Shown here piece after piece: positions 1 to 1,397 of a stretch of 14,920 nt of DNA. The stretch's first letter is position 1, and the number at the start of each line of letters is the position of its first letter. Origin of the DNA: Candidatus Heimdallarchaeota archaeon. Its GTDB lineage: Archaea; Asgardarchaeota; Heimdallarchaeia; Heimdallarchaeales; Heimdallarchaeaceae. Both the position numbers and the translations under genes were made by a program. Under the pieces are notes generated by a model that had not been told where the DNA came from, ran no database searches, and saw only the letters and a program-made list of their open reading frames with translations. The stretch is from assembly GCA_030668825.1 (NCBI GenBank), contig DAOVET010000060.1, positions 1 through 14,920 of the forward strand, read 5' to 3'.

Positions 1-206
1 TAGGCTCCCCATTTCATGGTACGTTTACTGAGGGACAACCACCTGTGTAGTTGCGAAACAGGTGAGTGCTGAAGAGCACACCATCTATCTTTCTATATTT
101 ACTTTCATATATAAACCCGGATAAAAAACGTTCATACTTACCCGCCCCCACATCTCCTCTTAGTTAGGTAGAGAGCATATGGTAAGATTAGTCAACTTTC
201 CTACAT
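1..206. mobile_element. Probable end of an insertion (IS-like) interrupting the CLC gene; family not determined
   Basis: CLC-like reading (S-V-V-Y-G-L-L-L-A-L) starts abruptly near 207 and the frame is closed by TAG at 189-191. Upstream sequence is non-coding and structured. No transposase is visible inside the window, so an assembly join cannot be excluded. Confidence 0.45.
16..204 (-). ncRNA. Putative structured RNA at the end of an inserted element (three stem-loop domains)
   Basis: No CLC-like coding on the plus strand. Read on the minus strand, D1 is GTAGGAAAGTT (204-194) pairing with AACGTTTTTTAT (132-121), enclosing CTTACC/GGTAAG (186-181/142-137) and an inner CTCTCT/AGAGGAG hairpin. 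D2 is the hairpin TTTATATATG-AAAG-TAAATATAGA (115-92). D3 is ATGGTGTG (84-77) pairing with CGTACCAT (23-16), enclosing a 12+16-nt internal loop and a perfect 7-bp CACCTGT/ACAGGTG hairpin (64-58/46-40). All three domains contain G-U pairs that work only on the minus strand. Folded by hand. Confidence 0.5.
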
Positions 207-227
207 TCAGTTGTTTACGGTCTTCTA

Positions 228-1397
228 TTGGCTCTACAGAAAATACCTTTTCTTTCGGAAGCTCCAGTGCTTTTGTCTCCTGTAACAACTAGTTTTACCA
301 TAACTTTTGTTAATTCTCTTCAGTTTCTCTTGTTTGGAATAATCGCCGGATTTCTTGGTATAGGATTTTCTCTGCTTTTTAGATATTTATCAAAAGGATT
401 TGACAGATACATCAAGAATCACTTTTTACCTTTAATAGGCATGGCAATCACTGCTATTATTGTGTTTTTAGTAGATGACTTTTGGTTACCTGAAGGCGTA
501 AAACTGTCGGGTACGGGGTTTAGATCTATAAATAACTTACTTGCAAATGAATCCATTGAACTAGGTATTTTGTTTGTATTGTTATTGGGGAAAATTATAG
601 TAACTTCAACATGTGTTGGTTTTGGAAATAGTGCGGGAGTTATGGGCCCAACCTTAGTAACAGGGGCAGCTTTAGGGTTGTTATATTCACGATTATTTCC
701 TTCCTTAGAAGCAACTGCATTAATGGTTGTAGGGATGTCAGCAATGCATACTTCAACAACAAAAACACCTATCGCTTCAATGATCCTTGTTCTTGAAATG
801 GTAGGGTTTCCAAATTTAATAATACCAATTATTCTAACTAACGCGATGGCTTTCATCATTTCAATGGACTTTAGTCTCTACAAAGGTCAAATCAGAAGCA
901 AAGAAGTTATTCTAAGAAGAACAATTCAACATACTGATGTTCTTGAGACACTTACTGTAAAATCAGCAATGGAGGATTCTTTTGCTTCACTCAAAAAACA
1001 TGATTTGTTGGAAGAAACCTTTCCACTTTTATACTTAGAGAAGAGAAGTTCGTTACCTGTTGTTGATGACAATGATTTTTTAGTAGGAATTATTAGTGCC
1101 ATTGATTACCAAGAAGGTTTCTCAAAAAGTAAAAGTACTGTTGGTGAATGTATGACATCTGAAGTTATTGTAGCTTATCCTGATGAAACACTTACGGCAG
1201 TTTTTGATCGACTAACTACTCATAGAATAGAATGTCTTCCAGTTGTTGATAGAACAGATCAAAAGACAATTGTTGGTTTCTTAACATTTAGAGATATAGA
1301 AGCACGCTATGAATCAGAGCTTACTCGTATTCACAGTAAAAGGTCATTAACAATTGAAGAATTAGAAAGTGATGAAGGAGATTTAAATGATTTTTGA
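228..1397 (+). CDS. CLC-family chloride channel/transporter with C-terminal CBS pair, 5'-truncated (likely disrupted gene)
   Basis: Second half of the CLC membrane domain is present: LSGTGF, GKIIVTSTCVGFGNSAGVMGPTLVTGAALG (GxFxP-equivalent), TKTPIASMILVLEMVG and FSLY (central Tyr). Two CBS domains follow (SSLPVVDDNDFLVGIIS; CLPVVDRTDQKTIVGFLT). The N-terminal half with the GSGIP/GREGP motifs is absent. The frame is open from 192 and TTG at 228 is probably not the native start. Confidence 0.9.
   Translation: MALQKIPFLSEAPVLLSPVTTSFTITFVNSLQFLLFGIIAGFLGIGFSLLFRYLSKGFDRYIKNHFLPLIGMAITAIIVFLVDDFWLPEGVKLSGTGFRSINNLLANESIELGILFVLLLGKIIVTSTCVGFGNSAGVMGPTLVTGAALGLLYSRLFPSLEATALMVVGMSAMHTSTTKTPIASMILVLEMVGFPNLIIPIILTNAMAFIISMDFSLYKGQIRSKEVILRRTIQHTDVLETLTVKSAMEDSFASLKKHDLLEETFPLLYLEKRSSLPVVDDNDFLVGIISAIDYQEGFSKSKSTVGECMTSEVIVAYPDETLTAVFDRLTTHRIECLPVVDRTDQKTIVGFLTFRDIEARYESELTRIHSKRSLTIEELESDEGDLNDF

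Follow-up and report, generated by a model that had tools for sequence, protein, structure and literature searches.

The window analysed here is a stretch of 14,920 nt from a Candidatus Heimdallarchaeota archaeon, and its position 1 is the exact start of contig C15 in the source assembly (G000; 2.76 Mb in 138 contigs, 90.6% complete). Positions 217–1397 of the plus strand hold the 3′ portion of a gene for a CLC chloride channel, read as a 389-aa ORF from position 228 (228–1397), which matches the Pfam Voltage_CLC profile only from profile position 154 of 346 and then carries two CBS domains. Beyond this ORF, no other CLC fragment was found in the G000 assembly (one match in all). The intact CLC gene of the same-genus genome G013 is a 606-aa open frame with 96% amino acid identity to the window ORF, and the G006 gene shows 80% identity, so that the first ~217 codons of the window's gene are seen to have been severed by an insertion. 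The nucleotide alignment of the window to the G013 gene begins at position 217, placing the boundary between the inserted element and the gene at 216/217. A preliminary description of this DNA had correctly recognized an insertion boundary in the CLC gene, but had set it at about 206, roughly 10 nt to the left of its actual position. The proposed reconstruction of the empty site could be carried out with the G013 CLC gene, giving TTTACA/ACGGTC for the empty site and GTTGTTT/ACGGTC for the filled site in the window. The rest of the window consists of ordinary chromosomal genes, i.e., PTPS, NUDIX, EamA, an Alg9-like glycosyltransferase, a sulfotransferase, ETF alpha and beta, and an FAD-linked oxidase.

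The left end of the window is repeated elsewhere in the same assembly. Window 1–221 recurs at the start of contig C138 (C138:1–233) with 98% identity, and window 1–62 recurs with 100% identity at the end of contig C127, an end that overlaps both C15 and C138. Such overlapping contig ends are typical of a repeat at which an assembly breaks. In Logan contigs, the depth of the repeat is 1.8–3.8 times that of its flank, with at least four different continuations beyond 218/221, and none of the contigs represents the uninterrupted allele. A misassembly near position 206 had been named as a possible artefact; however, window 192–900 is covered by one Logan contig piece in each of three DNA runs (X1, X2 and X8), showing that the junction is not a misassembly. 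In the other direction, the Logan contig reaches only 135 nt past window position 1, where 137 nt are expected, and neither the RE half of this copy nor the 5′ half of the CLC gene has been assembled.

Window 1–216 is probably the LE, the internal promoter and the 5′ RNA domain, all on the minus strand, of a MITE-like element of 353 nt that encodes no protein and derives from an IS607-family insertion sequence of Heimdall-group archaea. The assignment of these 216 nt to the LE side of a non-autonomous mini-element builds on the empty-site boundary and on complete copies in relatives. The full 353-nt unit, which has no ORF, is obtained by joining C127:11501–11699 to window 63–216, and the 137 nt that remain on the RE side of the window's copy, outside the window, are represented by the identical sequence at the end of C127, so that the element is expected to end in ACGTGCGT. 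In the genus set (n = 25 genomes, 72–92% complete), eight complete copies of 351–360 nt were found in seven other genomes, all without an ORF, with unrelated flanks and sharp ends; together with the copies on C138 and C127 of G000, these supply the extra copies and exact ends that the preliminary description had proposed to look for. Related gene-less subtypes measure 251, 318, 391–395 and 406 nt. The mini-element accounts for one contig break and one broken chloride-channel gene in G000.

The mobility of the element is seen in its different flanks, its sharp ends and two filled/empty pairs, one provided by the CLC gene in G013 and the other by the flanks on C127 and C138, which are contiguous in G012 and G013. 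In both pairs, the plus-strand dinucleotide AC is present once in the empty site and once at each junction of the filled site, with no other duplication, and the presumed crossover dinucleotide is therefore AC on the plus strand (GT on the minus strand) at window 217–218. On the minus strand, 14 of 17 small copies have ACCGT as their LE-side flank, and the other three have ACAGT, ACTGT and ACCTT; the ACCGT sequence, a target or TAM-like motif, lies at 217–221 (ACGGT on the plus strand) and is also present in the uninterrupted CLC gene of G013. Inside the boundary, a conserved LE block (180–211, minus strand) comprises ACTG at 211–208 and AAAGTTGACTAATCTTACCA at 199–180, both made up of invariant columns of the copy alignment A1, and the same block opens the full-length TnpA/TnpB elements. 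AAAGTTGACTAATCTTACCA forms one arm of a 20-nt, 80% identical subterminal inverted repeat with the RE and is a candidate TnpA binding site. It is followed by a variable spacer (127–179, minus strand) that has no conserved structure and is deleted in the copy G013_C81. On the minus strand, the layout of the element thus reads LE block, spacer, a T-run with TTTATATA, a ~130-nt non-coding stretch, and the last ~10 tnpB codons with the RE. The element has no coding capacity, shares both ends with an autonomous element and occupies several sites, as non-autonomous mini-elements do. The inverted repeat is subterminal only and a target-site duplication is absent, and the label MITE-like is used because these classical MITE features are missing. 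With these data, the ends, the target motif and the crossover dinucleotide of an IS607-type family are now set to the base.

The parent family was reached through the RE. An 86-nt RE module gave ~175 matches in 22 of the 25 genus genomes, and on contig C133 of G000 it overlaps the last ~10 codons of tnpB-like ORFs of 642 and 647 aa (two copies); it abuts a homologue of these ORFs in 9 of the 28 loci fetched. Complete elements, in G001 and others, run from ACYGT through an LE with an ACTG...CAATCTTRCCA block (as in window 211–180), tnpA and tnpB to the RE module. The mini-element matches the full-length element in four parts, namely the LE, the tnpB promoter block, the short mid-tnpB motif GTCCCTCAGTTAGT and the 86-nt RE module. 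The TnpA of the G001 element L094 scores 158.1 bits against NF033518, with a cut-off of 110, and combines a MerR (N-terminal HTH) domain with a Resolvase domain. The parent therefore shows a serine-recombinase TnpA with tnpB downstream, no target-site duplication, and a dinucleotide shared by junctions and target, as IS607 elements do. A TnpA above the NF033518 cut-off is encoded in 9 of the 25 genus genomes. In G000, 90.6% complete, no intact IS607 TnpA was found, only a C-terminal remnant at C133:4774–4887, which leaves the mini-element without a visible mobilizer in that genome. Three resolvase-domain ORFs of G000 (on C90, C80 and C29; 252–257 aa) were considered as TnpA and rejected, being far below the IS607 cut-off and not adjoining tnpB. 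A flank conserved over 5 nt on one side only counts against the IS607 assignment, such a flank being more typical of IS200/IS605 than of IS607.

The large ORF of the parent elements matches TnpB/Cas12f-like proteins at the level of sequence and of predicted structure. The ORFs, of 620–685 aa, match the Cas12f1-like_TNB zinc-ribbon domain, and a profile of 15 homologues matches Cas12f and TnpB chains with E values of 1e-5 to 1e-3. In an AlphaFold model (mean pLDDT 67.5, RuvC core below 50), the top Foldseek matches were all Cas12f/TnpB, with E values from 6.6e-6 to 1e-3 and TM scores of only 0.15–0.24. The proteins score under the curated NCBIfam TnpB cut-offs, and an invariant His replaces the third RuvC Asp of the solved Cas12f/TnpB chains, making their nuclease activity uncertain. 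Because the full-length relatives carry this TnpB/Cas12f-like gene, the element belongs to an RNA-guided lineage. The preliminary description was right in this respect, as it was in reading the sequence as the non-coding terminus of a mobile element that had inserted into the clc gene of an archaeon.

A promoter-like block lies on the minus strand at 101–128, consisting of a T-run followed by TTTATATA at 115–108, and is homologous to the block upstream of tnpB in the full-length elements. This TATA block sits 102–109 nt inside the element from the LE. The same box is found 94–98 nt upstream of the conserved MRSYQ start codon of tnpB in 7 of 8 TnpB-bearing elements, and the block is kept in every mini-element subtype, including the one of 251 nt. 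From the usual archaeal TATA-to-start spacing, an RNA is predicted to start near window 86–84 and would extend ~222 nt to the RE and onward into the flank. The RNA had previously been thought to start at the insertion boundary; that boundary is instead the LE, with the TATA block 102–109 nt inward, and the guide end would be at the RE, outside the window.

The RE module, also outside the window, occupies the position expected of an omega-RNA or reRNA scaffold, i.e., at the tnpB 3′ end and the RE in the sense of tnpB (the 86-nt module with the last ~10 codons). Within it, six base pairs join the loop (CGCACG) of a hairpin with a 7-bp stem to CGTGCG, the final nucleotides of the element. Over 44 distinct modules, this pairing is kept at 98.5%, with compensatory changes in three of the six pairs (6 cells), and none of 500 shuffles reached this value. 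The predicted pairing is pseudoknot-like and adjoins the flank, and it parallels the pseudoknot position of omega-RNAs. In the portion of PMC10097598 that treats the ISDra2 omega-RNA, nucleotides −5 to −3 are paired with −103 to −105, and the corresponding account in PMC10711439 gives the reRNA pseudoknot as conserved among TnpBs and Fanzor2s. Inverted DNA half-sites could also give rise to the RE pairing signal. Other helices of the RE (TTAAAC/GTTTAA and CGG/CTG) are broken by variants in alignment A4, as judged by eye, and are not claimed for this reason.

Between the predicted start and the RE module, a covarying two-helix domain (Pa/Pb; 8–62, minus strand) was detected, in which Pa pairs 62–55 with 15–8 and the stacked Pb pairs 54–47 with 42–35. 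Its 19-nt 3′-side internal loop (34–16, minus strand) opens with the near-invariant CCCTCAGT. In alignment A3, which contains 18 copies of two subtypes, 96.9% of the cells are paired and 7 of 16 pairs are compensatory (36 cells); none of 500 shuffles reached 96.9% pairing, and slid controls gave 32–51%. The two subtypes share only ~60% of the Pa/Pb columns, yet the pairing is kept through 36 double changes, and 94.1% of cells are paired in the model-built alignment A6 with 12 further copies. As 35 of the 288 cells are G–U, the fold is that of the minus (tnpB-sense) strand; the same cells would be A–C mismatches on the plus strand, in agreement with the strand specificity claimed in the preliminary description. 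Inverted DNA half-sites that change in a compensatory way could produce the same signal as RNA pairing, and G–T wobbles form in single-stranded DNA too. A small hairpin, GTGC/GCAC, lies at 66–79 on the minus strand (RNAalifold, A1 columns 216–219 with 226–229), and its GTGA/TCAC variants in G008 and G022 preserve the pairing. By eye, the middle arm of this hairpin could pair instead with GTGCTG further 3′, outside the window.

A covariance model of Pa/Pb (R1) gave 55 matches in 16 of the 25 genus genomes. Matches were present in 9 of 9 genomes with an IS607 TnpA above the cut-off vs. 7 of 16 without, counts in which related genomes are not independent. In the TnpB-bearing loci, nothing reached E ≤ 0.001 with R1; the weak matches that were obtained (E 0.3–8) fell in the middle of the gene and left the 3′ 250 nt of tnpB without a match. 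Membership of Pa/Pb in the cognate omega-RNA is unsupported, because its counterpart is absent from the last 250 nt of tnpB. Its sole resemblance is to a hairpin with GTCCCTCAGTTAGT in the middle of the tnpB ORF, whose hairpin potential is kept in 41–43%-identical paralogues despite different residues. This likeness could arise because Pa/Pb descends from that segment, because the two have an RNA function in common, or through a coding constraint. The domain is most likely an extra, putative protein-binding module of the mini-element RNA.

The region had first been drawn as a structured RNA of ~190 nt with three consecutive stem-loop domains. Compared with dinucleotide shuffles, the whole-region fold of the minus strand (−52.9 kcal/mol) is no better than the mean (−51.5 kcal/mol; z −0.28), a fold at least as stable being reached by 78 of 200 shuffles, and the plus strand gives z +0.61. 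The proposed domain 1 (204–121) has the variable LE spacer at its core; the variable segment gives z values from −2.35 to +1.55 in 15 copies, shares no common register and is deleted in G013_C81. Domain 2 (115–92) overlaps the sequence-conserved, tnpB-type TATA block containing TTTATATA. For domain 3 (84–16), real covarying structure does exist in the stretch, but not in the register drawn, which is 77.7% paired with one compensatory pair and is equalled by 47 of 500 shuffles; its inner hairpin alone is 72.8% paired over 18 copies. The alternative pairing in the same stretch, that of Pa/Pb, reaches 98.4% in alignment A1, with 0 of 500 shuffles. Searches of Rfam, with its group II intron and RAGATH-type RNAs, gave no match above the gathering scores in the window, no relevant one with E ≤ 1 on two halves of the element from G000 (L002/L003) and none at E ≤ 5 on a complete copy. 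A group II intron had been considered from the AC at the end of the element; at 353 nt and with no Rfam match, it was rejected.

The element is most likely a non-autonomous IS607 derivative carrying a predicted stand-alone omega-RNA-like gene, and not a bridge RNA; as such, it would most likely make a stand-alone omega-RNA-like transcript. In the proposed mechanism, TnpA supplied in trans would excise and integrate the mini-element by crossover at GT, beside the preferred ACCGT. From the retained TATA block, a minus-strand RNA of ~222 nt would then be transcribed, beginning at about window 85 and crossing the RE into the flank. Its 3′ part may serve as the omega-RNA/reRNA scaffold, with its pseudoknot beside the guide, and the RNA could be used in trans by TnpB-like proteins encoded elsewhere in G000, such as the two copies on C133. 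The retention of promoter and scaffold in gene-less elements means that trans use of omega-RNAs, as described for IS200/IS605 elements of bacteria, may extend to serine-recombinase elements in Asgard archaea.

Several other explanations were weighed against this one. In the preliminary description, the window was read as the end of a full-length RNA-guided element, with an IS110 bridge RNA or an IS200/IS605 omega-RNA and the enzyme just left of the window. This reading draws on the facts that the window opens at a contig start, leaving the left side of its copy unassembled, and that stem, internal loop and hairpin shapes can indeed be drawn; it is nevertheless extremely unlikely. There is no room for an enzyme in an ORF-less element of 353 nt in total, all eight complete copies of the subtype being of 351–360 nt, and the 135 nt by which the Logan contig extends beyond window position 1 fit the 137 nt of the RE side. 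Nor does the R1 model match any TnpB-bearing locus at E ≤ 0.001, its matches there being weak, mid-gene ones of E 0.3–8. The IS110 variant finds no DEDD_Tnp_IS110 (PF01548) match in G000. A bridge RNA was also expected to show loop strands matching target and ends; over 14 copies, the longest complements were 3–6 nt to the target, 4–6 nt to the LE and 3–6 nt to the RE, and loop-to-target complementarity of 3–6 nt compares with shuffled means of 3.3–4.5 nt (p ≤ 0.05 in 1 of 14 copies). The mini-element does share with IS110/IS1111 bridge (seeker) RNAs a non-coding RNA in a transposon end and modules of stem, internal loop and hairpin. In contrast to that family, which has an adjacent DEDD recombinase, this one carries a serine-recombinase TnpA and TnpB, and its internal loop is nearly invariant, tracking neither target nor donor; a bridge-RNA-like role is thus unsupported. 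A match between ACTGA of the LE and TCAGT of the loop showed no covariation by eye and was rejected.

The IS200/IS605 variant returns in another form, in which the element is a PATE-type derivative moved as single-stranded DNA by a Y1 HUH TnpA and its helices are DNA hairpins. A conserved pentanucleotide on the LE side only, the lack of a target duplication, the strand specificity of the conserved helices and the existence of TnpB-only relatives all agree with such an origin. However, Y1_Tnp (PF01797) has no match in any of the 25 genus genomes (72–92% complete), while the control search was positive in 6 of 14 known genomes, and in the autonomous relatives, whose LE and RE are the same, the transposase is an IS607-family serine recombinase. 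In addition, the same dinucleotide at both junctions fits a crossover of double-stranded DNA, and the strongest helices lie 150–200 nt from either end rather than subterminally, making this origin highly improbable. The element could also be a decaying internal-deletion relic without RNA function, in which the conserved blocks are binding or accessory DNA sites for TnpA and the likeness among copies stems from recent spread. Serine recombinases often use accessory sites, in many of the blocks it is the sequence and not the structure that is conserved, and the whole-region fold is no better than shuffles, as a relic would have it. This is improbable, however, in view of the 96.9% pairing kept through 36 double changes by two subtypes at ~60% shared Pa/Pb columns, the 35 strand-specific G–U cells, the promoter block present in all subtypes down to 251 nt, and the pairing of loop to 3′ end exactly at the omega-RNA pseudoknot site.

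A bolder reading goes beyond IS607 parasites and takes the mini-elements as guide-RNA genes that bring their own promoter and belong to a distinct RNA-guided system of Asgard archaea. The RNA would combine two protein-binding parts, the usual pseudoknotted 3′ scaffold and the 5′ Pa/Pb domain, and its partner would be the large TnpB-like protein with a D–E–H instead of a D–E–D RuvC site, binding DNA without cutting it or cutting it differently. In such a system, the Pa/Pb domain with its invariant CCCUCAGU loop may copy the hairpin-plus-motif of the mid-tnpB mRNA. We regard this possibility as rather unlikely; if true, it would add a new architecture to those of omega-RNAs and possibly reveal that TnpB is put to a non-nuclease use in the closest archaeal relatives of eukaryotes. 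The family in any case offers a compact, covariation-supported RNA together with a large divergent TnpB-like protein, and could inform TnpB diversification near the origin of the eukaryotic Fanzor lineage.

The mini-element joins known kinds, i.e., IS607 derivatives and mobilized omega-RNAs, with one unexplained conserved RNA domain. In the literature searched, no description of IS607-derived gene-less elements or of Heimdall TnpB elements was found; supplementary lists may contain some. The sections of PMC10711439 on IS607 elements describe recombination at matching dinucleotides and an reRNA that extends past the RE, with GG as the dinucleotide of ISXfa1. As far as these sections go, the Heimdall family resembles IS607 elements with TnpB and reRNA (ISXfa1; ISFba1 TnpB–reRNA, PDB 8iaz) in having a MerR-HTH serine TnpA with tnpB behind it and a guide-RNA scaffold that overlaps the tnpB 3′ end and the RE, and in inserting without target duplication, with one dinucleotide shared by the two junctions and present a single time in the empty site. 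It differs from them in using GT rather than the GG of ISXfa1, in its conserved 5-nt LE-side flank ACCGT and Heimdall-group host, and in a TnpB-like protein of 620–685 aa that falls below the cut-offs and whose third RuvC residue is His; the window's element has, moreover, lost both genes.

For IS200/IS605 systems, the relevant part of PMC10691335 describes mobilized omega-RNAs that stand alone and serve in trans, and PATEs are presented in that of PMC10055086 as gene-less IS200/IS605 elements encoding omega-RNAs. To the extent covered by these accounts, the mini-element is like them in being gene-less, in keeping both ends and the scaffold, and in needing a transposase and a nuclease in trans. 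Unlike PATEs, it has a parent with an IS607-type serine recombinase rather than a Y1 enzyme, keeps an archaeal TATA-type promoter block, and has an additional covarying domain on the 5′ side for which the tnpB 3′ region has no equivalent. The closest structural parallel is the ISDra2 omega-RNA, in which, according to the portion cited above, the nucleotides just 5′ of the guide likewise pair with a distant upstream loop. The two RNAs have no sequence or Rfam similarity, and the ISDra2 omega-RNA measures 116 nt vs. ~222 nt for the predicted scaffold of the mini-element, where the corresponding pairing comprises 6 bp and reaches a loop closed by a 7-bp stem ~65 nt upstream.

Solved Cas12f/TnpB chains carry the motif NADxNAAxNI, whereas the TnpB-like proteins encoded by the full-length relatives of the mini-element show NTHxNAAxNI at the same place. 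The latter motif is found in all 15 of the aligned TnpB-like proteins, including paralogues at 40–42% identity. Because NTH replaces the NAD of the solved chains, the third RuvC acid in these proteins is a His (D-E-H), i.e., H597 in the numbering of the protein alignment A5, as seen in the TnpB-like ORF at L046:1017-2882 (a stretch of contig C133 in the source assembly, G000). With His at the third RuvC position, the nuclease activity of the TnpB-like proteins is uncertain.

The middle of tnpB also contains, on the plus strand, a hairpin ACACTCT...AGAGTGT followed by CCCTCAGTTAGT, which encodes FTLFDHYMQSVPQL (e.g., L046:1794-1872). This hairpin and CCCTCAGTTAGT are similar to the Pb hairpin and loop of the mini-element, and in the divergent paralogues at L082 and L083 the hairpin potential is kept despite different residues.

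A TnpB-only element of ~2.1 kb was observed in another genome of the same genus, G013 (C21:9113-11194), ~58 nt from the site that holds the second mini-element copy in G000. The corresponding G000 sequence, ..AATCGT|GTTGATT.. at C138:~290, is the empty site of this G013 element. Thus, the intergenic stretch that separates the ABCE1-like gene from the E2/UBC-like gene has been targeted repeatedly. The second mini-element copy adjoins a gene (L002:473-1126, on G000 C138) whose 218-aa product shows the signature of a ubiquitin-conjugating (UQ_con/UEV/RWD-like) fold; this gene is eukaryote-like and of a kind typical of Asgard genomes.

The mini-element copies on G012:C41 and G013:C65, which come from different species-level genomes, are 99% identical (358/359 nt aligned) and have different flanks, a near-identity that suggests recent activity or transfer; divergence among the other copies is 15–25%. 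In the 251-nt copy of G020:C11 (L065), the 10 nt that flank the RE are identical to those with which its own LE opens (AGACTTCTGT), an identity whose length rules out chance and which could reflect a nested or tandem insertion, or a guide region matching itself. The G017:C105 copy (L059:1278-1683) is 406 nt long and includes an internal duplication of ~75 nt, through which the 5′ arm of the Pa/Pb region is present a second time.

Outside the window, a second abundant repeat of ~150–170 nt lies at G000 C127:11341-11470, directly left of the mini-element, with 22 further BLAST matches within G000. An Rfam search of the fetched locus L003 returned no match for this repeat. The repeat has the appearance of a further family of structured RNAs or mini-elements. 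It contains two hairpins, GGATAC/GTATCC and CACACTTC/GAAGTGC, the latter with compensatory variants, and a conserved terminus ...AAAATATTGTATGCWG.
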